NCBI GenBank assembly: GCA_949295755.1
Contig: CASFMG010000012.1
Span: forward strand, 1 to 57,958
Source of the DNA: an uncultured Christensenella sp.
GTDB taxonomy: Bacteria > Bacillota > Clostridia > Christensenellales > UBA1242
Length of the DNA: 57,958 bases
Direction of reading: 5' to 3'
This document shows positions 6,536-29,320 of the stretch, in pieces. A model generated the notes under the pieces. It worked only from the letters and a program-made list of their open reading frames with translations. It had not been told where the DNA came from and did not search any database. Both the position numbers and the translations under genes were made by a program. Each line of letters opens with the position of its first letter. Position 1 is the stretch's first letter.

Positions 6536-6544
6536 ACAAACCTC

Positions 6545-9211: not shown

Positions 9212-9287
9212 TATTTAATCTTTTAATAAATTTTGCAATAATACAATAAAAAAAATTAAAATTGAAATGTAAAAAACAAGTATTTTT

Positions 9288-9953
9288 TCACATCACAACA
9301 AAAAACAAAATTGAAACAAATTGTAATATACTTCCTAAAAGCACAAACAAATGCCAAACACTGTGTATATATTTCACTTTTGAACCAAAAGCAAAGAATA
9401 TTGCACCAACAGTGTAAGCAATGCCACCAGCAAGTAACCACCACATTCCTGCAAGTTCTAAATTTCTTAACAACGGAACAATTGCAATCAAAATACTCCA
9501 ACCTATTGCAATGTATAAAACCATACTCAACGCTTTCCATTTATACATATTTACTGCGTTCAAAACAATGCCCAAAATTGACAAACACCAAACAACAGCA
9601 AAAAGGCCATAACCCCAAATTGGTTCTGGTGATAATGTTATTAGACAATATGGTGTATATGAACCAGCAATAAGTAAAAAAATAGATAAATGGTCAAAAA
9701 TTCTAAAAACTTTCTTAGCCTTGTTTTTATGCAAAAAATGGTATATTGCCGACATAGTATAAGTAATAATCATACAAAAACCATATATATACATACTAAA
9801 AACACCAACCCAATTACAATATATATGAGCAAATACAACACCAATAATTAAAAATATAACGCCAAATGCACCACCCACAAGATGAGTAACTGCATTAAAA
9901 ATTTCTTCTCCTTTTGTAAAATTGGGAAGTGATTTATCATAATTTTTTTTCAT
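9288..9953 (-). CDS. hlyIII: Hemolysin III / PAQR family membrane protein
   Basis: 221 aa with about 7 hydrophobic segments. N-terminal EEIFNAVTHLVGGAFG and C-terminal IHSVWHLFVLLGS motifs are typical of the HlyIII/YplQ family. Confidence 0.85.
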   Translation of the reverse strand: MKKNYDKSLPNFTKGEEIFNAVTHLVGGAFGVIFLIIGVVFAHIYCNWVGVFSMYIYGFCMIITYTMSAIYHFLHKNKAKKVFRIFDHLSIFLLIAGSYTPYCLITLSPEPIWGYGLFAVVWCLSILGIVLNAVNMYKWKALSMVLYIAIGWSILIAIVPLLRNLELAGMWWLLAGGIAYTVGAIFFAFGSKVKYIHSVWHLFVLLGSILQFVSILFFVVM

Positions 9954-10050
9954 TTTTCACCTTGTTATATTATAGACCTATTTAACTAATCTGTAAACAA
10001 CAATTATATTTAAAAAAAATAAAAAAAATACTCTTATTTTTAGGTTTATA

Positions 10051-11085
10051 TTATCTTTGGTCGCTAATAGTTGCATTACTGTTATTATTTTGCAAATCAG
10101 CAACAGAATTATAAGGCACACCTGATGTTGTGCCATTTAATAGAGCAATATCAACAGCATTTGTTGGTTCTCCCCACGAATTGCCCGAAAACTGAAATAG
10201 TGCACCATCCACAACCCAGCCACGAGTATTAAATACAACATTGTGTGTAATAAATCCCGTTGAATTTGGGTTTAAATAGCCACTTTGTCGTAATGAATAA
10301 AAAATATTACCATCTATCCAATTATTTTGTGTTCCGCTTTGAGTAACGATTCCCCTATTGACCACCCAAGTATCTGAACTTCCCGACTGAGTTGGTCCAT
10401 AGATTATGTTATTTCTGACAACATTGTTATTCCCACCAATTTGTATAAATTCCACAGGATATGGATTATCGCTTGTAAATGTAAAACCTTGAATTTTATT
10501 ACCACTGCCTGTTATCAAAAAAGGAACAACATTATTTGTTAATAAAATTGTAGCATTTGGCTTAGCATCAATGGTTATATTGTTCTTTGATATAGTGGTA
10601 GTTGTATCCATTGGATAAGTCCCATCATACACGTGGATTGTGCCATTATTTGCTACTAAATTTAAAGCATCTTCAATTGTTGGTAAGGGTTTTGATTGTG
10701 TTCCTGTCCCTCCAATAGTATTACTTCTAACATATAAATCGTATGGATTTACAACATTGTTTCCCGCTGGACCGGTTGCTCCTGTTGGACCGGTTGCCCC
10801 TGTCGGACCGGTTGTCCCTGTTGCTCCTGTTGGACCGGTTGCCCCGTTTAAACCTTGTGGACCAGTTGGACCGGTTGCTCCTGTTGGACCGGTTGCTCCA
10901 TTTAAACCTTGAGGACCAGTTGCCCCTGTCGATCCTGTCGCTCCAGTTGCCCCTGTTGGTCCTGTTGGACCGGTTGCCCCAGAACCTCCTCCGTTTTGAT
11001 GAATATGTTTTATATAATAATTACAACATTTACTTTTTTTATTATAACATTTTTCATTGCATATTTGAGGATAAAAAAATTTCAA
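10051..11085 (-). CDS. Collagen-like triple-helix repeat protein with Cys-rich N-terminus and C-terminal right-handed beta-helix (pectin-lyase-fold-like) domain
   Basis: The ORF has no internal ATG before the repeat. The best start is the in-frame TTG at 11083-11085, preceded by a perfect AAGGAGG (11091-11097) with a 5-nt spacer; the track start (TTG at 11109) has no SD. About 25 uninterrupted G-X-Y triplets ([13 protein letters not shown]...GPAG). C-terminal part: [25 protein letters not shown] followed by N/G/T-rich beta-helix-like turns. No signal peptide is visible. Confidence 0.8.
10759..10989 (-). repeat. GC-rich in-frame tandem triplet (G-X-Y) coding repeats
   Basis: Reiterated ggaccggttgc(t/c)cctgtt units plus a longer duplicated unit encoding [16 protein letters not shown]. 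This is a local G+C spike in otherwise AT-rich DNA. Confidence 0.9.
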
Positions 11086-11221
11086 AAAAGCCTCCTTTTT
11101 ACATAACAATATATGTAGTTAAATATGCATATGACAATAAAAGGCATTTTCCATAGAAATATTTTTTAAAAAATATTTGTATGAAAAATCGATATATGTT
11201 AACTTAATCGTAGGAGGGAAT

Positions 11222-12100
11222 ATGAAAAAAATATTATTAATAGTATCTTTAGTTTTAGTTTTCAGTGTTTTTGGCTCAATGTTATATGCTTGTGGTAATT
11301 CTGCAAAAATGTATTCATTTGCAAATACAAAAGAATTATATGCGTTTTCTGTTGTGTCTGGAATGGAACTTGCACTAAACAATAATTCAAATAGTCAATT
11401 AAAACAAACACAAGAAGAATTTAACCGAGTTGTTGACTATGTTCATTCGTACTTGCCTACATTTGAAAGTTTTTTAGGAAACACGACTATTATTGCTCCA
11501 CAAGAACAGACTTCTGACAATAATTTATATTCTAAAATGCTAATTTTTTCTTATAAAGATATGCAAAATCAAGAACACAACTACAAACTATATTACAACG
11601 AAAGCGTACCATCACAAAATAATCGTCCCAGCAGAGATGACGATGACTATGAAGTTTCAACAAATTTAATTGGTGAAGTTGTATATAACAATAACTCATA
11701 TGAACTAAACGGGATTAAAGAAGTTGAAAAAGATGAAATTGAAATAAAATTTACAATTACTCTTGGAAATAATAAAAAAGTTGTAATTGAACAAGAAACA
11801 GAAAACGGTGAACAAGAATTTTCATACACAATTTACAACAACAATGTAGAAATATATAATACATCTATTGCAGTTGAAATAGAAAATGGAATGATAAAAT
11901 TTGAAAGTGAATACGAAAAAAATGGGCAAGAACTTGAACTAGAAATTAAGCAAGCAGAAAAAAACAACAATAACAAATTTTATATTGAATATGAATACAA
12001 TAATCAAAAAACAAGAATTGTAGTTGAAAAAATAAACGAAAATAATTCAGTTAAGTATGTATATTCAAACAATGATTACACAGTTACTAAAATGGCATAA
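11222..12100 (+). CDS. Lipoprotein of unknown function
   Basis: ATG at 11222 preceded by GGAGGG (taggagggaatATG). Signal peptide MKKILLIVSLVLVFSVFGSMLYAC with a lipobox-like LYAC followed by G. The longer track ORF (11177) lacks an SD. Confidence 0.8.
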   Translation: MKKILLIVSLVLVFSVFGSMLYACGNSAKMYSFANTKELYAFSVVSGMELALNNNSNSQLKQTQEEFNRVVDYVHSYLPTFESFLGNTTIIAPQEQTSDNNLYSKMLIFSYKDMQNQEHNYKLYYNESVPSQNNRPSRDDDDYEVSTNLIGEVVYNNNSYELNGIKEVEKDEIEIKFTITLGNNKKVVIEQETENGEQEFSYTIYNNNVEIYNTSIAVEIENGMIKFESEYEKNGQELELEIKQAEKNNNNKFYIEYEYNNQKTRIVVEKINENNSVKYVYSNNDYTVTKMA

Positions 12101-12105
12101 AATAT

Positions 12106-12133
12106 AAAAAATCACGAGGTTTCGTGATTTTTT
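12106..12133. terminator. Bidirectional rho-independent terminator between convergent genes
   Basis: Stem atcacga (12111-12117) / tcgtgat (12122-12128), loop ggtt, flanked by an A-run and a T-run. Confidence 0.75.
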
Positions 12134-12842
12134 ATTCTAAACTTTTTGATAATTCCTTTATTTTTTCTTCACTCATATCCTTAGTCCCGTTTAATCTATA
12201 AGGTATGTTTAACTCTTTATATTTATGAACTCCTAGTGTTTTATATGGTAAAAGTTCAATTTTTTCAACATTTTTTATGTTTTTTGCGTAATTTTTTAAA
12301 TTTATAACATTTTCTATTGTATCATTTATATTAGGAACAATAACCTGCCTTAGCCATACTTTATTGTTATTCTTTTGAACAGCACTTAAAAATTTATTAA
12401 ATTGTTCCATACTTTTGCCAGTTATATTTTTATAATTATATTCATCTGTTGCCTTAATATCCAAAATGACAAGGTCGGTATACTTTAATATTTCTTCGTA
12501 ATCGCCAAACCCCACCCCTGCTGTATCAACAGCAGTGTGAATATTATTTTGTTTACACAATTTTAAACATTCAATCAAAAATTTAGGTTGCAATAATGGT
12601 TCTCCACCAGAAAATGTAACTCCACCATCTTCTCCAAAATAATTTTTAAACCTTAATATTTTTTTTACTAAATTACTAGGTGTAATTTTTATGACTTTTA
12701 AATTTTTATTCCAGGTTTCTGGATTATGACAATATATACATCTTAGTTCACAACCTTGCATAAAAACAACAAACCTTATTCCTGGTCCATCAACAAGTCC
12801 CATTGTTTCTATGCTGTTAATATTTCCATATATTTTTTCCAT
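12132..12842 (-). CDS. pflA: Pyruvate formate-lyase activating enzyme (radical SAM)
   Basis: 236 aa. CxxxCxxC cluster motif GCELRCIYCHNPETW and the GGVTFSGGEPLLQ motif. Lies immediately downstream of pflB. Confidence 0.92.
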   Translation of the reverse strand: MEKIYGNINSIETMGLVDGPGIRFVVFMQGCELRCIYCHNPETWNKNLKVIKITPSNLVKKILRFKNYFGEDGGVTFSGGEPLLQPKFLIECLKLCKQNNIHTAVDTAGVGFGDYEEILKYTDLVILDIKATDEYNYKNITGKSMEQFNKFLSAVQKNNNKVWLRQVIVPNINDTIENVINLKNYAKNIKNVEKIELLPYKTLGVHKYKELNIPYRLNGTKDMSEEKIKELSKSLE

Positions 12843-16828: not shown

Positions 16829-17662
16829 ATGATAAGATTGATAGTTGACTCAACATTTGGAGTTTCAAAAAAATATGCAAATGAAAATAAAATTGAAGTT
16901 GTCAATTTAAAAATGATATTAGATGGACAAATATACGAAGAAGGATTTGAAGATACATGGGACGAATTTTATGAAAAAATGAAAAAGTCAAAAAGTTTTC
17001 CAACAACATCTCAACCTTCTCCTCAAGATTTTATGGACGCAATAGATAAAATATATAAAGAAGATGAAAATGCCGAAATTTTAATTTTAACAATAGCAAA
17101 TTCTTTAAGTGGAACAATAAATTCTGCAACAATAGCAGCAAACAGTTATCCAAATAAAAGAATAGTTGCACACGACACACAAAATGCTACAACTTGTTGT
17201 CGACTTTTAACGGAAGAAGTTGTTGAACACATAAAAAACGGAATTAGTTTTGACGAACTTTTAGAAAAATTGCCAACAATAGAGAATGCACTTAAAATTC
17301 AATTTGTTCCAGATAATATGGATGCACTCAAACGCGGAGGCAGAATCGGAACATTAAGTGCAGCACTTGCAAGCATTTTAAAAATAAAACCACTTTTTAA
17401 ATTTGCAAATGGAAAAATAACAATAACCAAAAAAGTTTTAGGATTGTCAAAAGCGATTACCGACGCAATTTATGAATTGCCAAAAAAAATAAAGAAACTT
17501 TGTATATGTTATATTTATGATAGGATAAATGTTCCAATGATTGCCGAAAAACTAAAAATAATGTTGGGATTAACAAACGTTGAAGAAGTAAAATTGGAAC
17601 CAGTTTTTGGTGTCCATGTTGGAATAGGTGCAGTAGGACTCGCATCATTAGAAGAATATTAA
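16829..17662 (+). CDS. DegV family fatty-acid-binding protein
   Basis: 277 aa. SD AAGGAG. N-terminal IRLIVDSTFG, SQPSPQDF and LSGT motifs typical of DegV. Divergent from the TetR gene. Confidence 0.88.
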   Translation: MIRLIVDSTFGVSKKYANENKIEVVNLKMILDGQIYEEGFEDTWDEFYEKMKKSKSFPTTSQPSPQDFMDAIDKIYKEDENAEILILTIANSLSGTINSATIAANSYPNKRIVAHDTQNATTCCRLLTEEVVEHIKNGISFDELLEKLPTIENALKIQFVPDNMDALKRGGRIGTLSAALASILKIKPLFKFANGKITITKKVLGLSKAITDAIYELPKKIKKLCICYIYDRINVPMIAEKLKIMLGLTNVEEVKLEPVFGVHVGIGAVGLASLEEY

Positions 17663-17664
17663 AA

Positions 17665-17694
17665 AAAGAGGTTAGAAATAGCCTCTTTTGTTTA
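17665..17694 (+). terminator. Rho-independent terminator after degV-like gene
   Basis: Stem aaagagg / cctcttt with a 10-nt loop, followed by a T-rich tract. Confidence 0.6.
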
Positions 17695-17716
17695 TAATAA
17701 ATTTATAAAAAAACAC

Positions 17717-17745
17717 TTGATTTTAATTAAAAAATCGTATATATT
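17717..17745 (+). promoter_or_regulatory. Candidate promoter for tRNA-Ser
   Basis: TTGATT (17717-17722), 17-nt spacer, TATATT (17740-17745), about 15 nt before the tRNA 5' end. Confidence 0.5.
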
Positions 17746-17760
17746 AGAAGAGTTAGTTAT

Positions 17761-17848
17761 GGAAAGTTGGCTGAGTGGTCGAAAGCGGCGGTCTTGAAAA
17801 CCGTTGACCTGAAAGGGTCCTGGGGTTCGAATCCCTAACTTTCCGCCA
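17761..17848 (+). tRNA. tRNA-Ser (anticodon UGA), CCA encoded
   Basis: Cloverleaf folded by hand. Acceptor GGAAAGT/ACTTTCC; anticodon stem GCGGT/ACCGT with loop CT-TGA-AA; long variable arm GACC..GGTC; T arm TGGGG-TTCGAAT-CCCTA; discriminator G then CCA. Confidence 0.95.
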
Positions 17849-17857
17849 TGAACTTGT

Positions 17858-17890
17858 CCATCCGTACCAATATGGTATGGGTGGTTTTTT
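17858..17890 (+). terminator. Rho-independent terminator after tRNA-Ser
   Basis: 12-bp stem ccatccgtacca / tggtatgggtgg (two G-U pairs), loop ata, then T6. Confidence 0.8.
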
Positions 17891-17891
17891 A

Positions 17892-17918
17892 TATAAAAAA
17901 GTGGTATAAAACCACTTT
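17892..17918 (-). terminator. Terminator of the HEPN-like gene (minus strand)
   Basis: Stem aaagtggt / accacttt with loop ataaa, followed on the minus strand by a U-run. It lies 2 nt after the stop at 17920-17922. Confidence 0.7.
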
Positions 17919-17919
17919 A

Positions 17920-18951
17920 TTACTTTAATTCTTTAATTAAAAAGTTTGCAAGTTTTAAATCATTTGTCATTTCTTCAAATAGCAAATTAATATTATTCAA
18001 TACATATCTTAAATACTTCATATTTATAAACAACAAAATTAGTTTTATACAATCTTCTTTTGTTGCTATTTTATTGTATACACCATGAGCAAGATCATGT
18101 CTATTTATATTTTCTTTGTTTTGAATATTAGTATTAATATTGCATAATTCATAAAATGCCTTAATTTTGTCCCACCACTCATCATAATATTGCATATTTA
18201 ATTTTTCAATAAATTTGTTAATTTGATTTGTTCGAGTATTTCTTTTCGTTTTTTCATTTGTTTCACTCATTTTCATATATTCATTATCAATCAAAGCGAA
18301 TAGCGTTCTAGCGCATGAATTATAAGAATAATTTTCCAAACAAGAAATTGCCTCTTTTAAATCTCCAATTTTATCTTTTTGCAATTCACTATCAAAAATT
18401 TTTGCATCTAAAATCTCTGAAAAATTTAATTTTAAAGTTTGAAAGTTGTTTTGAGAATAAATCTCAGTAACATACTTTTCAAGATTCTCATCTAAAGTAT
18501 TTTTTAGAACTTCATCTGGCATCGTATAAAAGTATAAAATATATCCTAAACCTGCCAACTTTCTTATTTTTGACATATATTTTTCACTAAACAATGTTTT
18601 TCTATCTTGATTAATTAATAATATGTATGAACTTAGTTGTTTAAAATATTTATATTTTATTTCATCTCTCTTTTTTAATATATCATTTATTTTTGCAAAT
18701 TTTGGATATTTATTAAAATCTTGAATTACCTTAGCAAATTTAGTGGGTGCAGTTTCTTTAATTTTAAGCGTTTCTTCGAAATTTTTATTAATATCATCAT
18801 AAAATGGAATGTTGTTGTTTTGTAAAATTTGTTCCAAAGGAATTGCTTTTACTAATTGTTTATACTCATCCGTTATATTTGATAATTCATCATCTAATTT
18901 ATTTAATTTTTTTTCTTCCTCTAATTGTCTTTTTAATATAATGTCTTCCAT
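17920..18951 (-). CDS. Hypothetical protein with C-terminal HEPN-like domain (Rx4H motif NRHDLAHG); putative RNase/toxin-like effector
   Basis: 343 aa. SD GGGAGAG lies 4-5 nt from the ATG. The N-terminal half is charged and coiled-coil-like. The C-terminal helical region LKEAISCLENYSYNSCARTLFALIDNEY ... NINRHDLAHGVYNKI has R284 and H289 (codons 18085-18102). The domain call rests on motif recall only. Confidence 0.45.
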   Translation of the reverse strand: MEDIILKRQLEEEKKLNKLDDELSNITDEYKQLVKAIPLEQILQNNNIPFYDDINKNFEETLKIKETAPTKFAKVIQDFNKYPKFAKINDILKKRDEIKYKYFKQLSSYILLINQDRKTLFSEKYMSKIRKLAGLGYILYFYTMPDEVLKNTLDENLEKYVTEIYSQNNFQTLKLNFSEILDAKIFDSELQKDKIGDLKEAISCLENYSYNSCARTLFALIDNEYMKMSETNEKTKRNTRTNQINKFIEKLNMQYYDEWWDKIKAFYELCNINTNIQNKENINRHDLAHGVYNKIATKEDCIKLILLFINMKYLRYVLNNINLLFEEMTNDLKLANFLIKELK

Positions 18952-19106
18952 TTATCTCTCCCAATTACAATAATAATTTCTTTTATATTTTATCACATAA
19001 TTTAACATTTTGTTTAATTTTATTGAAAATAGTTTTTAAATATATTAATCAAATTTTATTATTTATTAAACAACAAATATAAAAACGATACAAACTGTAA
19101 ATTGTA

Positions 19107-19115
19107 TGCTATAAT
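19107..19115 (+). promoter_or_regulatory. Extended -10 promoter (TGcTATAAT) for the 19140 gene
   Basis: tgctataat at 19107-19115, followed by AAAGGAG (19128-19134) and the ATG at 19140. Confidence 0.55.
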
Positions 19116-19139
19116 AGGTAAATAAGAAAGGAGAATATT

Positions 19140-20138
19140 ATGGAACAAAAATGTCCTATATGCAACAAAAAACATGAAATTATTGACGATGTAAATGAAT
19201 TTAACACAAAGGTTTATAAATGTCAAAAAACAAAATGTAAAATTCATGAAAGTGTTTTCTATGGAATAGATGATGCAGAAAAAGAAAAAAGATTAAATGC
19301 CATTTATAATTTTTTATATGAACATCCATTTGCAGATAAACATAAAACATATTGGAGATTTTTTTTTGAAGAAACAAATAATGCACCTTATGAACACTAT
19401 AATATTAATGTTTTTCATTTGATGCATAACTATCCTTACAATATTGAGAAAAGAATTAACGCTATTTTATTAGCTTTAAACAAATTATATCCAACAATAG
19501 CAGATTCTTTTACTATAAAAGATTTATATACAAATCATCCAAGATTATTTTATCCCGAAAGTTTATCAATGGGAGAAGAAAAAGTTATTAAAGAATTTGT
19601 TAGTATTTATTCTATATTAAGCAAATTAGACTTCATAGAACTAAGAGCAAAAGTTCAGGGTGAACCAGAAAAAACAGAATACGCTTTAACATATGAAGGA
19701 TTAAAGAAAATTAATGAACTTATGCAAGACAATCAAAACTCTAATAAAATTTTTATAGCGATGTCATTTGATCAAGATGTTGAATATATAGAATTAGCAT
19801 TTAAAGAGTCTATTGCCGATGCGGGATTTCAACCTGTAATAATAAAAGATAAAGAACATAATAATTATATTATGCCAGAAATTTTTTATGAAATCGAAAA
19901 TTGTGCAGCAATTGTTATGGATTTAACTAAACCAAATTTTGGAGCGTATTATGAGGCTGGTTATGCTTTAGGTTTAAAAAAACAGGTAATAGCGTGCTGT
20001 AAGGAAACTACTTTTAATAATTCCAAAATAAAGCCACATTTTGATATTTCTCAAAAATCTATGATTATTTGGAAAGATGAAGCTGACTTAAAGGAAAAAT
20101 TAACAAAAAGAATAAAATATACTATCAATGTAAAATAA
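19140..20138 (+). CDS. Zn-ribbon / wHTH-like / C-terminal nucleoside 2-deoxyribosyltransferase-like (TIR-like Rossmannoid) domain protein
   Basis: 332 aa with a strong SD. Zinc ribbon C5-x2-C8 ... C28-x4-C33. Central SILSKLDFIELRAKVQGEPEKTEYALTYEGLKKI resembles a winged helix. C-terminal KIFIAMSFDQD..AAIVMDLTKPNFGAYYEAGYALGLKKQVIACC fits the NDT-like pattern, retaining D261 and E272. The domain calls rest on motif recall only. Confidence 0.5.
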   Translation: MEQKCPICNKKHEIIDDVNEFNTKVYKCQKTKCKIHESVFYGIDDAEKEKRLNAIYNFLYEHPFADKHKTYWRFFFEETNNAPYEHYNINVFHLMHNYPYNIEKRINAILLALNKLYPTIADSFTIKDLYTNHPRLFYPESLSMGEEKVIKEFVSIYSILSKLDFIELRAKVQGEPEKTEYALTYEGLKKINELMQDNQNSNKIFIAMSFDQDVEYIELAFKESIADAGFQPVIIKDKEHNNYIMPEIFYEIENCAAIVMDLTKPNFGAYYEAGYALGLKKQVIACCKETTFNNSKIKPHFDISQKSMIIWKDEADLKEKLTKRIKYTINVK

Positions 20139-20168
20139 AATCGTGCTTTTTAGGGCACGATTTTTTTA
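20139..20168. terminator. Bidirectional terminator between convergent genes
   Basis: Stem aatcgtgc (20139-20146) / gcacgatt (20155-20162), then T7. Confidence 0.7.
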
Positions 20169-21737
20169 TTGTTCTCTTTTTTGAAGTACTGCAAAATATT
20201 CTTTTGAGTAGAATATTGATAGGTCTATGTTTTTATTTATTTCTTGTTCGGTTAATAATTTATGTTTTTCTTTTTCTAAATCAAAGTTGTCTATAATATT
20301 TGTTATTGCACTTTGTGTATAGTTTAAATCGGTAAAGTTATAAAATATAACTATTGCATCGTTATAAAGAATAATTTGTTTAATAAAAGTTTTTACAATA
20401 TGCTTTCTAACTTCATAATTTTCAATATCGCCACAAATAATCTTTTTGAAATATTCCATAACCATATCTTCTGTTAAAAATGATAGATTCTTTTGTTTCT
20501 CTTGTTCAATAGCAATATCGTATTCTGCTATTTGCATTTCAAGTTCTTTTAATCTTACTTTTGTTTGTTCGGTTATAATTCCTAATTCAACAGCACTTAT
20601 AAGATTTTGTGATGCTTTTAATAATTTATCTCGACTTAATTCAAGTGCTTTAATTCTTGCTTCTTCTTCGTTATCACTTTGACATTCTATAATCTTTTTT
20701 GCAATCTTTTTTAAGTTATTATTGTTAGATAGCACTTTCCAAGTTATATCCACAACTTCTTTTTCAAGTTCATCTTTCTTATTAGATTGCATCAGACAAT
20801 TTAAATGCTTTCTTCTTCGTTTTGTTAAGCAAGAATAATATCTATATTTAATTACTTTTTTAATTTCTTTACCAGATTCTCCAACCATTTTATGTTTGCA
20901 ATAACCACAAAATAATTTGCCAGACAAGATATAATCATAAGAATCTTGTTTTCGTATTTGTGCGTGTTTATATGCTTTCCTTAAATCTTGAACTTTTTGC
21001 CAAGTTATTTCATCAATGATCGGTGGATAAATATTTGTGTAAACAGTATCACCATGTTGGACTTTTCCAATATACTTTGTATTTGCAATTATTTTATATA
21101 TTTTCTTATCATCTATTAAAACACCTTTTTTAGTTCTAACATCTCTTGCTTTTAAGTCTTTGGCTATATCTACACCCGTATAACCCTGTGAAAATTTTGT
21201 AAATATTTCTTTTACAATCTTTGCTTCACTTTCATTAATAACATTTCGTTTTTCAACGACATCATATCCATATATTTGATTTCCACCTGTAAAGTATCCT
21301 TTTAAGTAACTTTCATTTAAACCACGAAGCACTTTTTGAGATAGTTCTGCTGAATAGTATTGATTCATACCTTCAAGTAAACTCTCAAGTATTATTCCTT
21401 CTGGTGTGTCTGGTATGTTTTCCATAGCAGATAATAGTTTTACTCCATTACTACTTAAGGTGTGTTTATGTATTGTTGTTTCATATTTGTTTCTACTAAA
21501 TCTATCTAGTTTATATACAATTACATAATCCCATTGTTTCTTATTGCTATCTTTTATCATTCTTTGAAAATCTGGTCTATTATCGTTAGTACCTGTCATT
21601 GCTCTGTCAATGTAAGTATCTAAAATAACAATATTATTTCTTTGAGCAAAATCTTTACAAACTCTTAATTGTCCTTCAATAGATTGTTCTGTTTGACTAT
21701 CACTTGAATATCTTGCATATATAACTGCTGTTTTCAT
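20166..21737 (-). CDS. Large serine recombinase (resolvase/invertase N-terminal domain + recombinase domain + zinc ribbon + coiled coil)
   Basis: 523 aa. SD GGAGG. N-terminal AVIYARYSSDSQ with the catalytic Ser, then DRPDFQRMI and VIVYKLDRFSRN. Zinc ribbon LFCGYCKHKM..YYSC. Long helical C-terminus. Confidence 0.92.
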   Translation of the reverse strand: MKTAVIYARYSSDSQTEQSIEGQLRVCKDFAQRNNIVILDTYIDRAMTGTNDNRPDFQRMIKDSNKKQWDYVIVYKLDRFSRNKYETTIHKHTLSSNGVKLLSAMENIPDTPEGIILESLLEGMNQYYSAELSQKVLRGLNESYLKGYFTGGNQIYGYDVVEKRNVINESEAKIVKEIFTKFSQGYTGVDIAKDLKARDVRTKKGVLIDDKKIYKIIANTKYIGKVQHGDTVYTNIYPPIIDEITWQKVQDLRKAYKHAQIRKQDSYDYILSGKLFCGYCKHKMVGESGKEIKKVIKYRYYSCLTKRRRKHLNCLMQSNKKDELEKEVVDITWKVLSNNNNLKKIAKKIIECQSDNEEEARIKALELSRDKLLKASQNLISAVELGIITEQTKVRLKELEMQIAEYDIAIEQEKQKNLSFLTEDMVMEYFKKIICGDIENYEVRKHIVKTFIKQIILYNDAIVIFYNFTDLNYTQSAITNIIDNFDLEKEKHKLLTEQEINKNIDLSIFYSKEYFAVLQKREQ

Positions 21738-21903
21738 TTTTAACCTCCATACATCTTTTATTAGAGGTTACAATGTTGTTTTTTACATTAGTATCAAGTC
21801 TATGTTTACTTTGTAAATACGGTATGTATATAAAATGTTTCAACAATATTTCTTTAACATATCTTTTTTGTAAACTTGTTTTAACAAATTGTTCTAAAAA
21901 CAT
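21700..21903 (-). CDS. Small basic hypothetical protein upstream of, and overlapping, the recombinase start (candidate regulator/directionality factor)
   Basis: ATG at 21901-21903 is preceded by a perfect AAGGAGG (21913-21919) with an 8-nt spacer. 67 codons, ending 38 nt inside the recombinase gene in another frame. No recognisable motif. Confidence 0.3.
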   Translation of the reverse strand: MFLEQFVKTSLQKRYVKEILLKHFIYIPYLQSKHRLDTNVKNNIVTSNKRCMEVKNENSSYICKIFK

Positions 21904-22040
21904 ATAGTTAACCTCCTTATCGAAAATTTTTTTCGACAAGAAAAAATCATCAGAGAATGGGCGCAGATGTCAAAGAAAAAGAAAAAAAATATTGTCTTTA
22001 AAATTTTGAAATTAAAAGTTTTAAGCAATAATTTTTTCCT

Positions 22041-22069
22041 TTGACAGCCAGAACATTCTATGATAAATT
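22041..22069 (+). promoter_or_regulatory. Strong candidate promoter reading rightward into the long leader of the DUF2075 gene
   Basis: TTGACA (22041-22046), 17-nt spacer ending in TG-a, and -10 TAAATT (22064-22069). No protein gene lies within the next 500 nt. Confidence 0.5.
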
Positions 22070-22271
22070 TCCCAAACGAAAAAGGATGATAACTTAAACC
22101 CAACAAATAGAACAATTTGTTTATATTATTAAGAAATATATAAAATCAATATTTTTATATCCACAATTAATAAAAATCTTATATAATGATTTTTAATATT
22201 GGGATGAAGGTTGTTATATGGGAAAACACAGTCCCGAAGTAATTGAGCAAATGAGAAAATCGAATTAAAAG

Positions 22272-22352
22272 ACAAACGGCAACTAAAAAAATGTGAGGCA
22301 GAAACGGAAAGCCTGCGCGTTGATGCCCACATTAGTTACCGTTTGTTTTTAT
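22272..22352 (+). terminator. Long imperfect hairpin followed by a U-tract (terminator/attenuator-like or structured RNA)
   Basis: Outer arms acaaacggcaactaa (22272-22286) and ttagttaccgtttgt (22332-22346) pair at 14 of 15 positions. An inner helix atgtg(a)ggca / tgcccacat is also present. The G+C-rich interior is followed by tttttatt. Confidence 0.45.
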
Positions 22353-22397
22353 TCACCAAGATTTTAATTGTGAAATTTCTTGCTTTGTTTGTGTTTT

Positions 22398-22455
22398 GGC
22401 GTGTGCTTGTCTGGTGGCGCAAAGCGACACCACTTGTTCAAGACAAGCACACGCC
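22398..22455. repeat. Perfect 15-bp GC-rich inverted repeat enclosing a second small hairpin
   Basis: ggcgtgtgcttgtct (22398-22412) and agacaagcacacgcc (22441-22455). The interior ggtg-g-cgc-aaa-gcg-a-cacc can itself fold. It stands out against the AT-rich background. Confidence 0.7.
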
Positions 22456-22518
22456 AGGATCTCATTTGTTAATTTTTCAATAAAAATATAAAAGTTCAAA
22501 TTCCCCTTGCCCTACCAT

Positions 22519-22547
22519 TTGCTTTTTTTATAATTTTATGATATATC
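22519..22547 (+). promoter_or_regulatory. Candidate proximal promoter of the DUF2075 gene
   Basis: TTGCTT (22519-22524), 17-nt spacer with TG at 22539-22540, -10 TATATC (22542-22547). Confidence 0.4.
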
Positions 22548-22571
22548 TTCAACTGTTAAGGAGAATATATT

Positions 22572-24416
22572 ATGAACGGTTTTATTTCGACAATAGGAGA
22601 TTTTAATACATTATCAACTACTGAAATTCTATCTATTTTAAAAAGTAAGTATTCTAATGCAGAAAAATCACAAATTTTATCATGGGAAACTTTGATAAAT
22701 GATATTAAAAATTCTAAAAAATTTAATGAAATTAATAAAAAATGTTTAATTGGATTGGAAATATCTCTTCCAACGGATGGCATGGCTATTGATTTGTTGA
22801 TTTGTGGTAAAAATTCAATAAAAGAAAAAGAGTGTTTTATTATCGAAGCAAAACAATGGAATGATGATTATATCAACAATAGTCATTTTTCTCAATATAG
22901 AGAACCAGGATTTGAACTACATCCTCAAATTCAAGTATATAGACACTCGTTAAGTTTTAAAGACTATCTTGATATCGGTATTGATTATAATGTTCATAAA
23001 CTCGTTTTTGTTAGAAATTGTTCTAAAAATGGTATTGTAAATTTAATAAATAAAAACACTTTGCTTTCAACTAAAAATATACAAGTTGATAATGATATAG
23101 ATGAAATTATGTCAATTATAGCATCAAATTTAATTTGTGGCGAAATAACAACAGATGAAATAATTAATGCTGAGTATAAGCCATCAAAAAGTATTATTAA
23201 AGCAATGGAGTCTATAGTTTCTCACAACGAACCTTTTATTTTAACAATAGAACAGCAAAATGTGATAAATAAAATTAATGAAGCAATTAATAATGGGAAA
23301 AAAATTATTCGTATTACTGGAGCAGCTGGGTCAGGTAAAACAGCAATTTTATTAAATATGTATGTTAATCTTTTAAATAGACAAGCCAATGGCGAAGATG
23401 TCCGTCCTGTATTTGTTTCTGGAGCACAAAATACGGCTTTTTATAGAAGCACATATCCTGAAGTTGAACGCTCATTTTCATATTCATATTCTTTAGATAA
23501 AATGGTAGCAAAAACAAAAGGCAATTTATATTATGTGTTAATGGATGAAGCACAACATAATCAAGAAGGTATTATACAAACAATGATAGATAGAAATGTA
23601 ACACTTGTACTTTGTTATGATATTTCGCAGGTTATTAATGCTAACAATTCAATTGCTGAACTAACAAATTTAGAAAAAAGAGAAGACTTTTTGTGTATTA
23701 ATTTAGAAAAAAGTGTAAGATTTAACGGCTCTCAATTAGCAGAAAAAAATATAAGAAATTATTTGAAAGGTTCTTTAGATATAAAAGAAGATAATATTTT
23801 TGAATTTAAAGTATTTAATGATTTAAAAACTTTTCAAGAAAAAATTGTTTCTACTATTAATAACCATCCCGATGATACGGTTGCAGTTGTTGGTCTTCTT
23901 TCAAATGATGCTTCAAAATATACAAATTCTGAAAATCCTGACTCAATATTTTTTACTCAATGGGGAAATAAGGCTGAATGTGATTGGCTTCCATATATTA
24001 ATGATAAAAATTATCTTTCAAAAAATAATGGAAACTTATGGGTCGGAACTTGGTGGATGCCTGGCTTAGATGTTGATTACATTGCTGTTATTGTAGGAGG
24101 CGATGCAAATCATTCATCAAATGGTATTAAAGCAATACCTGATCAAGCAAAACATTATTTAATGATGGTAAGTATAGGAAGAAAACTTAACCTTCCAGAT
24201 GAATTATTTGTTACAAAAAAAAGTTTTGGCAAAATTGTTCAAGATAATAGAAAAACTGCAGATAATATCATGAATTATTTAAAAGATAAACCTGACTTAT
24301 ATGAAAATTTTATTAATATGTTTTCTCAATTGTTAAGAAATAATTATTACATAATGATGACCAGAGGAAGAAAAGGCTGTTTTGTCTACTTTACTGACCA
24401 AACAGGAAAGAATTAA
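22572..24416 (+). CDS. DUF2075-type protein: N-terminal PD-(D/E)xK nuclease-like domain fused to a P-loop SF1-like ATPase/helicase
   Basis: 614 aa. SD AAGGAG. Nuclease-like motif LEISLPTDGMAIDLLICG ... CFIIEAKQW (D74, E92, K94). Walker A ITGAAGSGKTA and Walker B YYVLMDEAQH. Later motifs VLCYDISQVI, SVRFNGS, GLDVDYIAVIVGGD and YYIMMTRGRKGCFVY. Confidence 0.8.
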   Translation: MNGFISTIGDFNTLSTTEILSILKSKYSNAEKSQILSWETLINDIKNSKKFNEINKKCLIGLEISLPTDGMAIDLLICGKNSIKEKECFIIEAKQWNDDYINNSHFSQYREPGFELHPQIQVYRHSLSFKDYLDIGIDYNVHKLVFVRNCSKNGIVNLINKNTLLSTKNIQVDNDIDEIMSIIASNLICGEITTDEIINAEYKPSKSIIKAMESIVSHNEPFILTIEQQNVINKINEAINNGKKIIRITGAAGSGKTAILLNMYVNLLNRQANGEDVRPVFVSGAQNTAFYRSTYPEVERSFSYSYSLDKMVAKTKGNLYYVLMDEAQHNQEGIIQTMIDRNVTLVLCYDISQVINANNSIAELTNLEKREDFLCINLEKSVRFNGSQLAEKNIRNYLKGSLDIKEDNIFEFKVFNDLKTFQEKIVSTINNHPDDTVAVVGLLSNDASKYTNSENPDSIFFTQWGNKAECDWLPYINDKNYLSKNNGNLWVGTWWMPGLDVDYIAVIVGGDANHSSNGIKAIPDQAKHYLMMVSIGRKLNLPDELFVTKKSFGKIVQDNRKTADNIMNYLKDKPDLYENFINMFSQLLRNNYYIMMTRGRKGCFVYFTDQTGKN

Positions 24417-24633: not shown

Positions 24634-25818
24634 ATGTATAATTTCAAATTTATTGATTTGTTTTCTGGGATAGGTGGTTTTCATCAAGCACTTCAAAACT
24701 TAGGTGGAGAATGCGTATTTGCTTCTGATATTGATAAATATGCTATAGAAACTTATAAAGGAAATTATGGCATAAATTCAGACTGCAATATTAGGAACGT
24801 AAAAGAAGAGGATATTCCACAACATGATATTTTGTGTGCAGGTTTTCCTTGTCAAGCATTTTCTAAGGCTGGACATCAAAAAGGTTTTGCTGATGAAACA
24901 AGAGGAACTTTGTTTTTTGAAATTATAAGAATATTGAAATATCATAAAACACCTTGTTTTATTTTAGAAAATGTTAGGAATTTAGCTTCTCACGATCATG
25001 GTAATACATGGAAAGTTATTAAAAATTCTCTAAAAGAATTAGGGTATGTAATAACTGAAGATCCTATCATAATAAGTCCACATCAATTAGGCGTTCCGCA
25101 AATAAGAGAAAGAGTTGTTATATTAGGAATACATAAATCTTTAGGTATAGAAAAAATAAATGTAGAATTGCCTGCATTAACTAAAAATGATGTAAATTTT
25201 TTTGATTCTGATATTTTAGAAAAAGGTAAAGTTGATAAAAAATATTATATATCAAAGCATGAAGAAATTGTTTTAAATTGCTGGGACGAATTTATTAAAG
25301 GTGTTAAAGAAAAAGTTATTGGTTTTCCAATTTTAGCTGAAGAATTTGGACAAACTTATGATTATACAATACTAGGTTATCCAAATTGGAGGATGAATTT
25401 TATAAAAAGAACAAGAGACCTTTATGAGAATAATAAAGAGTTTATAGACAATTGGTTAAAAAAATGGAATAATTTGGATACTTTTACAAATACAGAAAAG
25501 AAGTTAGAATGGCAATGTGGAAAAGATTGTTCTTCTATATGGGATGGATTTATTCAGTTTAGACCTTCTGGAATAAGAGTAAAAAGACCTACTGTTTTCC
25601 CATCACTTGTTGCTATGGTGCAAATTCCAATTATTGGTGTAGTTAAAAGAAGACTTACCCCTAGAGAAGCTGCTAGATTACAAAGTTTTCCTGATACATT
25701 TGTATGTAATAAAAATGACCATCAAGCATATAAACAATTTGGAAATGCTGTTAATGTAAAGGTTATTGAATATATGGCTAAACAAATGTTTAAAAATATT
25801 AAGAAAAATAACAATTAA
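24634..25818 (+). CDS. dcm: DNA (cytosine-5)-methyltransferase
   Basis: 394 aa. Motif I FIDLFSGIGGF, motif IV GFPCQAFS, motif VI ENV, motif VIII QIRERV, motif IX RRLTPREAARLQSFPD, motif X QFGNAVNV. All motifs are intact. Confidence 0.93.
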   Translation: MYNFKFIDLFSGIGGFHQALQNLGGECVFASDIDKYAIETYKGNYGINSDCNIRNVKEEDIPQHDILCAGFPCQAFSKAGHQKGFADETRGTLFFEIIRILKYHKTPCFILENVRNLASHDHGNTWKVIKNSLKELGYVITEDPIIISPHQLGVPQIRERVVILGIHKSLGIEKINVELPALTKNDVNFFDSDILEKGKVDKKYYISKHEEIVLNCWDEFIKGVKEKVIGFPILAEEFGQTYDYTILGYPNWRMNFIKRTRDLYENNKEFIDNWLKKWNNLDTFTNTEKKLEWQCGKDCSSIWDGFIQFRPSGIRVKRPTVFPSLVAMVQIPIIGVVKRRLTPREAARLQSFPDTFVCNKNDHQAYKQFGNAVNVKVIEYMAKQMFKNIKKNNN

Positions 25819-25840: not shown

Positions 25841-26350
25841 TCAAATAAAGTATGTATTTGGATTGATAATTTTTACTTTGCAATTTTTTTGTTTTGCATA
25901 TAAAAGTGTATTTTTCGTTCCACTTGGTTTTCCGTTCCAACAAGCAATACAAATATTAGAGTTGTTAACCATAAATTTATTTCTTTCATTCATGCAGGTT
26001 CGCGTATATTTGGGTGATAAAACAATTTTATTATCACATTGATTTAAAATATTATTATACCTTTCTTGTTGACTAAGTTTCCATTTTGATTCTTGACCTA
26101 AGCAAGGCACTACAGCAATTATTTGTATGTTGTGCTTTTTCTTTAAGTTTAATAAAATTTCAGTTCCTATCATATCAAAACCTTCCGCCATTCCACTTAA
26201 AAAAGTTTTATAACCACATTTGATAGCATTCTCAAATATAGTTTCTAAATCTTTTTTGAATTTAATACAAGATTCTTTTGTTTCATCATAACCCCATGGC
26301 AAAGATTTAGGTCTATGACCTGTAAGGCAAATTGTTTGTTCTTTTATCAT
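25841..26350 (-). CDS. DUF1273 / YpsA-like SLOG family protein
   Basis: 169 aa. N-terminal CLTGHRPKSL, then SGMAEGFDMIGTE, and C-terminal WNGKPSGTKNTL, matching the YpsA-type SLOG pattern as I recall it. Confidence 0.7.
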   Translation of the reverse strand: MIKEQTICLTGHRPKSLPWGYDETKESCIKFKKDLETIFENAIKCGYKTFLSGMAEGFDMIGTEILLNLKKKHNIQIIAVVPCLGQESKWKLSQQERYNNILNQCDNKIVLSPKYTRTCMNERNKFMVNNSNICIACWNGKPSGTKNTLLYAKQKNCKVKIINPNTYFI

Positions 26351-26460: not shown

Positions 26461-26877
26461 ATGATTGATTTTATAAAATTAGTTGAAAACATTTTGGAAG
26501 AGCAAGACAAAACTAAGCAAGATTTATTTGAAAATAAAGTTATATCGGAAAATACCTTTTTCAAATATAGACAACGCTATCCAAGTCTTAAAACTTTAAT
26601 AAATATTGCGAACTATTTAAAAGTTTCATTAGATTATTTATTTGAGTTTACTAATGAAAATCATTTTGAAGAGTATAAAGAAGAAAATTTAAAGTTTTAT
26701 GAAAATTTAATTTCTTTTATTAATGCTAAGAAAATTTCTTCTAGACAATTTTGTAAAGATTTAGGTTATGCAAAAGACAATATTCTTCGTTGGAAAAATG
26801 GAATACAACCAACTTTTCAAAGATTGCTAGAGATAGCAAAATATTTTAGATGTTCTATTGATGATTTAATTAAATAG
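26461..26877 (+). CDS. Transcriptional regulator with two XRE-type helix-turn-helix units
   Basis: 138 aa. Unit 1 TKQDLFENKVISENTFFKY..LKTLINIANYLKVSLDYLF. Unit 2 SSRQFCKDLGYAKDNILRWKNG..FQRLLEIAKYFRCSIDDLI. Divergent from the SLOG gene. Confidence 0.75.
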   Translation: MIDFIKLVENILEEQDKTKQDLFENKVISENTFFKYRQRYPSLKTLINIANYLKVSLDYLFEFTNENHFEEYKEENLKFYENLISFINAKKISSRQFCKDLGYAKDNILRWKNGIQPTFQRLLEIAKYFRCSIDDLIK

Positions 26878-27574: not shown

Positions 27575-28399
27575 CTATATGGCAAGTTGCCTTAATTGTT
27601 TATTTGCGTATGGTAACCATACTTTGTTTATAAAGTTCATAACTTTGCTATCTGGTTTTGAATTGTGGTCAGCATAACATTGTAATATTTTGTGATTTTT
27701 AAGTGAATATTCAAGCGTAACAAATGGTTTGTTAGGCTTGTTTTTGTTTCTTATGAAGAATATCAAACTTTCTTCTCTAACAAACTTTTGGTCATAGTTC
27801 ATACTACCAACGCAGTGATGAAGTTTTTTGCCTTCATACACTAAATCTTCTGAACTTGTCGGAATTATTGAAATATACACATCTTTTAAATTGTGTTGTA
27901 AAGACAAATATTTGTTTGCAATGTTTAAAAACTTTAAGTTAAATGCTTTTCTTTCTTCTTCATCTGTTTTTTGTTTTGCAGTTGTGTATTCATCAATTCG
28001 TATGTCGTGCCAACGCTTAAAGTCGTGTGGTATTTTGTTTTTGTTTTCTTGCATATTAAGTTTTAAATATTTGCAAGCATTTAAGTAATCTATATACAAA
28101 CTATCATCAATTTGTTGAGAAGTGATATAATTAAAAAATTGCTCAATGTTGCCATTAAACAATTCTTTTATTTCTCTATAATGTTCATTTTTTGAAAAGG
28201 ATTTAATAAATGTTTCTAGTTGTTGTGTTTTATCTAAATCTTTATTTTGTTTATATGCAGTAATAATGGTTGAAACATAGTAACTTTTAAGATATATTTC
28301 AAGTTTGTTTTTAATAAGCCACTTTCTAAACTGTTTATCTTTTTCAATTAGTTTTAGTATTGTTTTACTTGTAGCGTAATATTTTAAATTTAGCTTCAT
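27575..28399 (-). CDS. PcfJ-like protein (C-terminal part; gene probably 5'-disrupted)
   Basis: 274 aa from the first ATG. GKKLHHCVGSMNYDQKFVREESLIFFIR resembles the PcfJ-domain HCVG signature. The frame stays open for 151 more codons upstream (28400-28852) with no ATG, GTG or TTG. Confidence 0.7.
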   Translation of the reverse strand: MKLNLKYYATSKTILKLIEKDKQFRKWLIKNKLEIYLKSYYVSTIITAYKQNKDLDKTQQLETFIKSFSKNEHYREIKELFNGNIEQFFNYITSQQIDDSLYIDYLNACKYLKLNMQENKNKIPHDFKRWHDIRIDEYTTAKQKTDEEERKAFNLKFLNIANKYLSLQHNLKDVYISIIPTSSEDLVYEGKKLHHCVGSMNYDQKFVREESLIFFIRNKNKPNKPFVTLEYSLKNHKILQCYADHNSKPDSKVMNFINKVWLPYANKQLRQLAI

Positions 28400-28835: not shown

Positions 28836-29320
28836 ACTTTATTATTAATCCTTTATTAATACATCGCAATTAAGTCCTTCATATTTTTTCTTTATCATTA
28901 TTTTAATTAATATATTTTCTAAATAAAATTAAATTTAAAATATACTAAAAAATTTATTTCCACCATTTATATGTTATAAACTTTTTATTTGTTCTGCAAA
29001 ATATTATGATCACTTTTTTGTATTTACAATTAAAATTTTGTTAAATAAAAAATAAATAATAGATATTAAACAAAAAAAATTGTTAAATAAATAAATTTAC
29101 ATAAATTTATATTTGTAAAGTTTTTATTTATTAAATTGTATTATATACGGACTATTAAATTTTATGAAAGTATTTACTTTTAAATTGAATAATTATATAA
29201 TTAATTTGAAATTTGATTTTATAAAAATTTGTATTACAATCAAAAAATATAAATCATAAAACTATGTAAACATTACATAATTAACCTCTGTAATTAAATA
29301 ATACATTAAAAGGAAATCTT

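Follow-up and report, generated by a model that had tools for sequence, protein, structure and literature searches.

We examined a pair of divergently transcribed genes in a stretch of DNA of 57,958 nucleotides (hereafter the window; contig CASFMG010000012.1) from an uncultured Christensenella sp. The left gene, on the reverse strand, encodes a protein of 343 amino acids (aa) and the right gene, on the forward strand, a protein of 332 aa. They share a spacer of 188 bp (18952-19139) and lie between a tRNA-Ser gene and the gene of a large serine recombinase. The original prediction, made from the sequence of the window, described them as a HEPN-like protein and a nucleoside 2'-deoxyribosyltransferase (NDT)-like or TIR-like protein that together form an autonomous 2.2-kb module. 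Both reading frames and their spacer were confirmed, as were the extended -10 box TGcTATAAT of the right gene (with GGAG 6 nt ahead of the ATG), hairpin terminators on both sides of the pair, and the setting in a tRNA-adjacent mobile island next to a recombinase. The module itself, however, did not hold: the region is probably the cargo end of a serine-recombinase integrative element at the 3' end of tRNA-Ser, carrying two independent single-gene conflict modules and not a two-gene system.

Exchange of a single gene between conserved flanks

Two sister elements from related strains, L005 and L013, carry left homologs that are 87-88% identical to the window protein, with the same recombinase beside them. 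By blastn, both are 95% identical to the window across 20089-22126, which comprises the terminator, the recombinase gene and its upstream region, and 91% identical across 17757/17842-18965/19013, which comprises the end of the tRNA, the left gene and its leader. From ~18965/19013 to ~20089-20138 neither L005 nor L013 resembles the window in the blastn comparison, and the left homolog there faces a 542-aa open reading frame (ORF) in the cargo slot. In the alignments, one break point of this exchange falls some 60 bp ahead of the start codon of the left gene and the other immediately before the shared terminator. Since the flanks are conserved and the middle is unrelated, the exchanged unit is the stretch of about 1.1 kb at ~19014-20138, that is, the right gene with its own promoter, and not the 2.2-kb pair; the terminator at 20139-20164, which had been counted as the right border of the module, falls on the conserved recombinase side of the exchange boundary. 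The 542-aa ORF has no domain in common with the right protein (BLASTP E 0.29) and no match in Pfam, PADLOC or PHROG. In L005 its cassette has an analogous promoter box, TGaTATAAT, and it can be described as an orphan candidate cargo or defense gene with a promoter of its own.

Conservation of the two genes as neighbors had been set beforehand as the test by which the prediction could fail, and essentially no co-occurrence was found beyond near-identical copies of the element. We gathered 91 right-family loci (80 from different species genomes, retrieved with the right-family alignment, together with metagenome loci of close and distant relatives) and 19 left-family loci. A profile hidden Markov model (HMM) of the left family found no convincing member in the 91 right-family loci; its sole signal, of 17 bits (E 4.6e-4), falls in L071 on an ORF distinct from the right homolog and some 2 kb upstream of it. 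The right-family HMM gave 0 matches in the 19 left-family loci. Right homologs about 70% identical to the window protein have other neighbors, with a PDC-S53-type helicase, a Hachiman HamB helicase or a DUF4379 protein upstream and no left gene. The two families also differ about 40-fold in size, with at least 334 right and 8 left relatives in a database clustered at 90% identity. Nearly all right relatives are full length (313-340 aa), and for the left family an exhaustive profile search raised the number to 324 representatives at E<=1e-3, of which 37 reach E<=1e-30. We conclude that the left and right families do not co-occur and that the pair is not conserved. Several assemblies that are nearly identical to one another (contigs of 57958, 31236 and 4994 bp) do contain both genes, as would be expected if one element is shared by descent.

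The right protein and its genomic neighborhoods

The AlphaFold2 model of the right protein, computed with 109 relatives, has a predicted local distance difference test score (pLDDT) of 89.9. Four strands at residues 2-4, 11-16, 23-27 and 32-36 make up the zinc-ribbon-like module at the N-terminus. All four cysteines of the predicted ribbon (C5, C8, C28 and C33) are present in the window protein, while in the relatives C8 and C28 are found in 109 of 109, C5 in 106 and C33 in only 20; a Cys or His lies within 1-6 residues after C28 in 60 of the 109. In the middle region the model has helices at residues 102-116, 126-132 and 146-162 and strands at 166-170 and 180-183, with pLDDT above 90. This order, three helices followed by a beta-hairpin (102-183), agrees with the winged-helix-like arrangement of the original prediction, although no independent fold match accompanied it, and the middle is presumed to be a sensor or nucleic-acid-binding part.

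Beta-alpha repeats at residues 203-328 form a flavodoxin-like three-layer fold of about 130 aa. The right protein matches Pfam PF05014 (E 8.5e-5, 23.1 bits, profile positions 44-100) and the PADLOC "TIR effector" model (E 6.6e-6), and a precomputed PF05014 match is present in one of 120 listed right-family relatives. A profile of the C-terminal domain, searched against the PDB, matched Rcl/DNPH1 (E 7.5e-4), BcmB (E 0.019) and NDTs (E 0.13-0.7). Foldseek against the PDB likewise gave DNPH1 as the best match (E 1.9e-4, target-normalized TM 0.64-0.72), with further matches to the TIR domains of SARM1 and SPARTA, to a nucleoside 2'-deoxyribosyltransferase and to the CMP N-glycosidase BcmB. Glu272 is placed by the segment DLTKPNFGAYYEAGYALGL, translated from 19920-19976; its counterpart in the alignment is the Glu of the Rcl/DNPH1 motif GVGYELG, and it is invariant in all 109 relatives, as are N266, Y270, F205, A207, F210, N241, P246, F301, D302 and W311. 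As had been predicted, the C-terminal domain belongs to the NDT/DNPH1/TIR-like N-glycosidase superfamily and retains the Glu at the catalytic position.

The beta1 motif of the right protein reads F205-I-A-M-S-F, with F205 invariant, where DNPH1 and NDTs have Y-F-x-G; F205 is equated with their Tyr by motif position only, as the local alignments stopped short of beta1. A Tyr at this position, which forms a hydrogen bond with the Glu, goes with 2'-deoxy specificity, and NADase TIR domains have Phe or Ala there (PMC11204291). Given the Phe at this position, we lean toward a ribo-substrate such as NAD+ or NMP, which the right protein may prefer. Work on the F17Y variant of MilB reportedly makes the same point for CMP versus dCMP.

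The right family occurs in Bacillota, Spirochaetota, Fibrobacterota, Chloroflexota and one methanogen metagenome-assembled genome. Its PHROG match is phrog_16139 (E 3e-29), a family of unknown function, and PGAP labels its plasmid homologs "nucleoside 2-deoxyribosyltransferase"; tblastn against GenBank phages found no match for the right or the left protein.

We counted 109 immediate same-strand neighbors in 77 non-redundant right-family loci. They are dominated by parts of type I, II and III restriction-modification (R-M) systems, Mrr, Schlafen and Abi_C. The commonest Pfam families were ResIII (12), DEAD (9), N6_N4_Mtase (8), RE_endonuc (7), HSDR_N and Methylase_S (4 each) and Mrr_cat (3), and other neighbors belong to the MmeI, Eco57I, BsuBI/PstI, Schlafen, Abi_C and KilA-N families. 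In nine species genomes the right gene is encoded between the mod (N6_N4_Mtase) and res (ResIII and RE_endonuc) genes of a type III system (L060, L065, L067, L071, L072, L082, L083, L087 and L098; the right homolog lies at about 6001-7000 in most). Where it abuts mod or res the gaps range from -53 to +81 nt, most of them being overlaps or spacers shorter than 30 nt; L072 and L098 have an additional gene that separates mod from the right homolog. The hosts of this arrangement are Treponemataceae, Sphaerochaetaceae, Ruminococcaceae and several Clostridia, and some of the gene strings also carry an Abi_C, DUF4238, Mrr or Schlafen gene. Abi_C, a HEPN family different from that proposed for the left protein, adjoins right-family genes in L067 and L072. 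Elsewhere the right homolog follows RloB (L001) or a PDC-S53 helicase (L017) at 15-17 bp, or Hachiman HamB (L111) at 253 bp. These neighborhoods therefore favor a conflict role over that of a salvage enzyme, and the guilt-by-association case for such a role is strong.

Some loci have a more elaborate organization. In L001-L004 (4064-8954) the right homolog lies 15 bp after a pair of AAA_21 and RloB (AbiL-like) genes, and about 330 bp past it there is a fusion of a reverse transcriptase with a trypsin-like protease; DUF2971 is also close by. In L009-L012 (4975-12990) a three-gene cassette of KilA-N, HTH_3 and a variable third gene is present in two tandem copies; one copy has a right-family gene in third place, and the third gene of the other codes for a 1531-aa AAA_11/AAA_12 helicase. 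On plasmid p4 of Leptospira interrogans (L115, 5288-10100) a SEFIR protein, the right homolog (after a gap of 13 bp) and a large SAM-dependent methyltransferase are encoded in a string that adjoins phage baseplate genes.

The left protein and the recombinase element

The AlphaFold2 model of the left protein, computed with 41 relatives, consists of helices only (pLDDT 92.5). Near its C-terminus the segment INRHDLAHG, translated from 18082-18108 on the reverse strand, gives R284 and H289. All of 41 full-length relatives have R284 and G290, and R284, H289, G290 and G136 are the only residues conserved in 90% or more of 134 relatives. Distant relatives read INRNxxxHG and align with the profile only at positions ~190-315, which cover the last ~130 residues; the family motif is R-[NH]-x3-H-G. 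It fits the HEPN signature, R-x4-6-H with a polar residue after the Arg (PMC3710099). Weak Pfam matches among the 134 relatives (best E 3.7e-4) are most often to HEPN_Apea (5), Csx1_HEPN (4), Phasin_2 (3), DUF4209 (2) and RiboL-PSP-HEPN (2), all of which except Phasin_2 are HEPN families. The only NCBIfam match of the left protein is far below threshold (14.3 bits against a cut-off of 400 bits). Foldseek of the left model against BFVD returned three unannotated phage proteins only; a protein search with the alignment of the C-terminal domain returned four already-known relatives, none of them annotated by Pfam, and tblastn against plasmids found no match. The predicted motif is thus present and conserved, while HEPN models and solved HEPN structures gave no match to the window protein. 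A HEPN identity is plausible, and is rated only so because the fold, profile and library searches were negative; whether the protein is an active RNase appears to be an almost even question.

A large serine recombinase is the commonest neighbor of the left family (the window, L005, L013, L008 and L101-L106). In L101 (5986-8592), L102 (184-2801), L103, L104 and L106, left homologs of 47-51% identity end 2-4 bp ahead of a serine recombinase of 498-527 aa, and in L101, L105 and L107 a gene for a 68-70-aa XRE-type helix-turn-helix (HTH) protein lies divergently upstream of the left homolog. In the window and in L005 and L013 the cargo slot separates the left gene from the recombinase; in L100, L107, L109 and L110 there is no recombinase nearby. 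The partners of the left family vary and include the 542-aa ORF, the XRE HTH protein, DUF7662, a PDC-S39-like protein and the recombinase. L101 and L102 also contain a second recombinase-like segment.

Homology of L013 to the window ends at 17842, inside the 3' end of tRNA-Ser, whereas that of L005 runs on through the tRNA to 17757; the 3' end of the tRNA is therefore the island junction. We searched for a second copy of the tRNA 3' end that would mark the far edge of the island and found none, which is expected because the element uses a serine recombinase. The recombinase of the window matches the phrog_95 integrase (E 7e-106). Scans of 17.0-22.6 kb for retron non-coding RNA (ncRNA), type III antitoxin repeat arrays and other RNA families yielded only the tRNA at gathering score, and no meaningful tandem repeats were found in that range; no convincing operator repeats were found in the 188-bp spacer. 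The terminator scan, which covered 4 kb, found terminator-like hairpins at 6 sites, against 1.1 in shuffled sequence. The coordinates of the locus are collected in Table 1.

Table 1. Features of the locus. Positions refer to the window except where L005 or L013 is named.
Feature	Position	Strand	Basis
tRNA-Ser (anticodon tga)	17761-17848	+	ARAGORN; Rfam tRNA, 58 bits
Separate terminator of the tRNA	17858-17884		Terminator scan and sequence
Bidirectional hairpin terminator, abutting the left-gene stop codon	17898-17918		Terminator scan and sequence
Left gene, 343 aa, all-alpha: N-terminal long-helix region and C-terminal HEPN-like domain	17920-18951	-	ORF, AlphaFold2
Left protein, conserved C-terminal domain (aa 186-343), candidate HEPN	17923-18396	-	Conservation, matches of distant relatives
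Left protein, R284-H-D-L-A-H289 (R-x4-H), followed by highly conserved G290	18085-18102	-	Translation
Leader and promoter region of left gene, conserved with L005 and L013	18952-19013	-	blastn, alignment
Promoter-like site with TG, left gene	19016-18987	-	Sequence scan
Exchangeable cargo cassette (right gene with own promoter)	19014-20138	+	Homology to L005 and L013 lost there
Extended -10 box TGcTATAAT (TGCTATAAT) of right gene	19107-19115	+	Sequence
Ribosome-binding site GGAG of right gene, 6 nt ahead of ATG	19130-19133	+	Sequence
Right gene, 332 aa	19140-20138	+	ORF
Right protein aa 1-37, four-stranded zinc-ribbon-like module (C5, C8, C28, and C33 in this copy)	19140-19250	+	AlphaFold2, conservation
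Right protein aa 38-198, helical middle, winged-helix-like arrangement	19251-19733	+	AlphaFold2
Right protein aa 199-332, NDT/DNPH1/TIR-like N-glycosidase domain	19734-20138	+	Pfam, PADLOC, PDB profile search, Foldseek
Codon of Glu272 (catalytic position), right gene	19953-19955	+	
Bidirectional terminator common to cargo gene and recombinase gene, conserved in sister elements	20137-20164		Scan, alignment
Large serine recombinase, 523 aa	20166-21737	-	Pfam Resolvase, Recombinase and Zn_ribbon_recom
542-aa ORF in cargo slot of sister elements	L005 4208-5836; L013 4209-5837	-	

Beyond the recombinase gene, a NERD domain fused to a Schlafen-group-3-type helicase is encoded at 22572-24416 on the forward strand and matches the PADLOC candidate PDC-S41 (E 9e-12); it is probably a further defense gene of the same island. 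Farther downstream the island encodes an orphan C5 cytosine DNA methylase (24634-25818), a YpsA-family SLOG protein (25841-26350, reverse strand), an XRE/Cro-type regulator (26461-26877) and a PcfJ-like protein (27575-28399, reverse strand). An imperfect direct repeat of 45 nt (71% identity) ending in CTGCAAAATATT is present at 20156-20200, at the 3' end of the recombinase gene, and at 28961-29005, and GC content drops at about 29 kb, near the second copy, from about 0.26 to about 0.19-0.22. Repeat and drop together may mark the far edge of the island, or may be due to chance. L013 has an insertion between its left gene and the tRNA-junction position, a type II R-M island (7172-12832) with an HTH gene, a C5 methylase, an Eco57I-type N6 methylase and a match to PADLOC REase_II; the tRNA-Ser junction site appears to accumulate islands. 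The window, with a GC content of about 25%, also contains a second tRNA-Ser (cga) at 43120-43209 on the reverse strand and, at its edge, an ORF of 2283 aa (51037-57888, reverse strand).

Interpretation and relation to known systems

On the reading that we consider probable, the right gene would be a self-promoted, exchangeable cassette for a single-protein defense enzyme that combines a sensor with an N-glycosidase. Its N-terminal zinc-ribbon and winged-helix-like domain would recognize a phage-derived protein or nucleic acid, and its C-terminal domain would use Glu272 to cut the N-glycosidic bond of a nucleotide. The enzyme would most likely act on NAD+ or another ribo-substrate, or on a nucleotide of adenine or cytosine, and this cleavage would deplete an essential pool and abort the infection. 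The left gene would be a separate accessory gene of elements with this kind of recombinase, most likely encoding a stand-alone abortive infection (Abi)-type HEPN RNase. The suggestion of defense cargo in the original prediction fits the defense islands in which the right family is found, while that of a toxin-antitoxin-like pair, or of any one system formed by the two genes, lacks the co-occurrence that it calls for.

The closest working analog of the right protein is Swarozyc, a single protein that joins a TIR-like NADase to an HTH/winged sensor and is switched on by the phage portal (10.64898/2026.05.01.722283). Both are single polypeptides from defense islands with an N-glycosidase of the TIR/NDT superfamily and a catalytic Glu, the winged part of the right protein being predicted only. 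Divergent relatives of the right protein that keep the catalytic domain with other N-termini match weakly both PF05014 and DUF4062, the latter at 17-23 bits and below the cut-off of 24.7. In the right protein, however, the domain order is reversed, with the catalytic domain C-terminal (199-332) and the zinc ribbon and winged-helix-like part at 1-198. A zinc ribbon is added, PF13271 (DUF4062) does not match at E<=1, and the best sequence and structure matches are to DNPH1/Rcl rather than to TIR domains. Swarozyc itself was rejected as an assignment on the missing DUF4062 match and the reversed order.

Next come the effectors of type II retrons (Retron-Eco1/Ec86, Sen2), which are bilobed, toxic proteins with an NDT-like and a winged-helix DNA-binding domain that deplete NAD+ or adenine nucleotides (PMC7736814, 10.1101/2023.08.16.553469, PMC13276650); the Ec86 effector depletes NAD+ (PMC13276650). 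The predicted layout of the right protein has the same two kinds of domain. In retrons, by definition, the NDT-like domain is N-terminal and the winged HTH C-terminal (PMC7736814), the opposite of the right protein, and the effectors depend on an adjacent reverse transcriptase (RT) and msr/msd RNA. There is no RT ORF in the window at 15-24 kb and no ncRNA match at gathering score in 17000-22600, and an RT lies nearby in only one of the 77 right-family loci. A type II retron was rejected for want of an RT or ncRNA partner and for the opposite domain order.

ThsI of type VIII Thoeris, a further analog, joins tetratricopeptide repeats (TPR) to a CMP-hydrolase effector that is activated by cyclic ADP-ribose from a neighboring TIR protein (10.64898/2025.12.03.692087). 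It likewise uses a nucleotide N-glycosidase domain of the NDT superfamily as an anti-phage effector. The model of the right protein shows no TPR, and no TIR gene is present among the four ORFs scanned in 17.9-24.4 kb; Thoeris, including ThsI, was rejected on these two grounds. By analogy, the right protein would work like Swarozyc, the retron II effectors and ThsI, while being none of them.

DNPH1/Rcl, MilB/BcmB and NDTs have the same fold, the T-x-P-x-x-G-x-x-Y-E-x-G strand-loop and a Glu nucleophile that aligns with E272. They are stand-alone metabolic enzymes of about 150 aa, whereas the right protein has an N-terminal extension of 200 aa, extra invariant motifs (KEHNN, PHFD and QKS) and, judged by motif position only, a Phe in place of the 2'-deoxy-selecting Tyr of DNPH1 and NDTs. 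Fusions of NDT domains to Abi N-terminal domains were described in 2013 (PMC3710099).

The left protein resembles the HEPN Abi proteins (AbiD/F, AbiJ, AbiU2 and AbiV) as well as ApeA, Csx1, DUF4209 and RiboL-PSP in being all-alpha with R-[NH]-x3-H near the C-terminus, in its variable helical N-terminal region and in its mobile-element context. It differs from them in giving no significant match to a HEPN model of Pfam or PADLOC and no structural match to a solved HEPN, and the link of its family to serine recombinases is unusual. HEPN-MNT and type II toxin-antitoxin pairs were rejected, as there is no nucleotidyltransferase neighbor and the left-family partners vary. AbiD/F and CBASS were also considered and rejected. 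No PADLOC model assigns either gene to a named system; the original prediction had not recognized the pairing as one.

Several points weigh against the reading of two independent conflict modules. For the right protein, the winged-helix assignment comes only from the order of secondary-structure elements in the AlphaFold2 model. The PF05014 score falls under the gathering threshold (23.1 versus 28.8 bits), and the Foldseek E-values are modest (1e-4 to 1e-3), so that NDT-like and TIR-like chemistry are not separable by them. Since the mod and res genes are homologous, the type III loci may reflect the spread of a single operon type and not repeated, independent associations. For the left protein, Pfam (HEPN families included), PADLOC and PHROG gave no match. 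Foldseek of the whole model against the PDB returned nothing below E 1.8 and no solved HEPN structure, a search in which the long helices probably swamp the ~130-aa domain. Full-length and C-terminal-domain profiles returned only coiled-coil noise, and no solved HEPN, from PDB sequences. Defense, toxicity and enzyme activity are predictions from sequence for both families, and genomics alone does not decide whether the two proteins interact functionally in this lineage, where the pair persists in near-identical assemblies.

It is possible, if unlikely, that the right protein is not autonomous but an accessory third component of the restriction or helicase system that it adjoins, either a latent second-line effector like PrrC, set free once a phage blocks restriction, or an enzyme acting on the bases of phage DNA. 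The apparent translational coupling between mod and res in nine genomes and the short distances behind RloB and the PDC-S53 helicase, together with the position 253 bp behind HamB, would be well explained in this way, and the same embedding in R-M operons is documented for the HEPN nucleases PrrC and RloC (PMC3710099). A branch of the right family is placed like these nucleases in type III systems, and other members lie in type I loci; the right protein nevertheless has an N-glycosidase fold where PrrC and RloC have an ABC-ATPase fused to HEPN, and the window copy lies outside any R-M operon. This copy is served by a promoter and a terminator of its own and lacks a co-directional partner. The partners of the family are moreover mixed (type I, II and III R-M, AbiL-like genes, helicases, KilA-N/HTH), and the same mix also arises when independent genes cluster in defense islands.

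A related and quite unlikely proposal makes the whole 332-aa family a restriction-linked immune enzyme. The zinc-ribbon/winged-helix part would guide the NDT-fold N-glycosidase onto phage nucleic acid and excise bases there, for example modified bases that escape restriction, or the protein would serve as a latent PrrC-like back-up when the type III or type I enzyme is inhibited. If true, this would account for the branch of the family that is coupled between mod and res.

That the left protein is an accessory of the serine recombinase, a directionality or regulatory factor and not an RNase toxin, strikes us as decidedly unlikely. The recombinase is the family's most frequent neighbor, left homologs in the L101-L106 group end 2-4 bp ahead of its start with a divergent XRE-type HTH gene, and Foldseek gave no HEPN fold match. 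On the other hand, the four left-family loci that have no recombinase nearby do not fit, nor does the gene order relative to the recombinase, which varies between lineages; the best-conserved feature of the family, R-[NH]-x3-H-G, is typical of HEPN active sites (PMC3710099).

We find it very unlikely that both genes form one system in this lineage, be it a HEPN toxin that the NDT-like protein keeps in check or that signals to this protein, or a toxin-antitoxin-like pair with a common divergent control region. The divergent arrangement around a common spacer, the conflict-type domains on both proteins, the persistence of the pair on several near-identical contigs and the Abi_C genes beside right-family members in L067 and L072 would suit such a system. 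They are set against 91 and 19 loci with no convincing co-occurrence (the 17-bit signal in L071 aside), left homologs that keep position and leader while facing an unrelated 542-aa ORF, close right homologs that have no left gene, and the roughly 40-fold difference in size of the two families (334 versus 8 matches in the same database). Finally, an ordinary salvage nucleoside 2'-deoxyribosyltransferase with no conflict role, as the PGAP label and the weak PF05014 match might indicate, is extremely improbable for a sporadic, mobile and exchangeable gene with a sub-threshold PF05014 score, ~200 extra N-terminal residues with a zinc ribbon conserved across the family, an invariant Phe at the beta1 Tyr position and neighbors that are overwhelmingly R-M and defense genes.

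The failure of the HEPN-plus-NDT proposal saves effort that would otherwise go into an accident of cargo shuffling, and the locus is left as a clean example of a serine-recombinase element that swaps a single promoter-plus-gene cassette between fixed flanks. What stands is a sizeable right family, with more than 330 clusters at 90% identity and no name in PADLOC, Pfam or PHROGs, which joins an N-terminus predicted to be of nucleic-acid-binding type to an NDT/TIR-like N-glycosidase and is found repeatedly in R-M operons and defense islands. The right gene offers a simple one-gene test case. If it does encode a defense enzyme, the family would represent a third architecture of NAD+- or nucleotide-cleaving NDT/TIR-like effectors, after the retron II effectors and Swarozyc.

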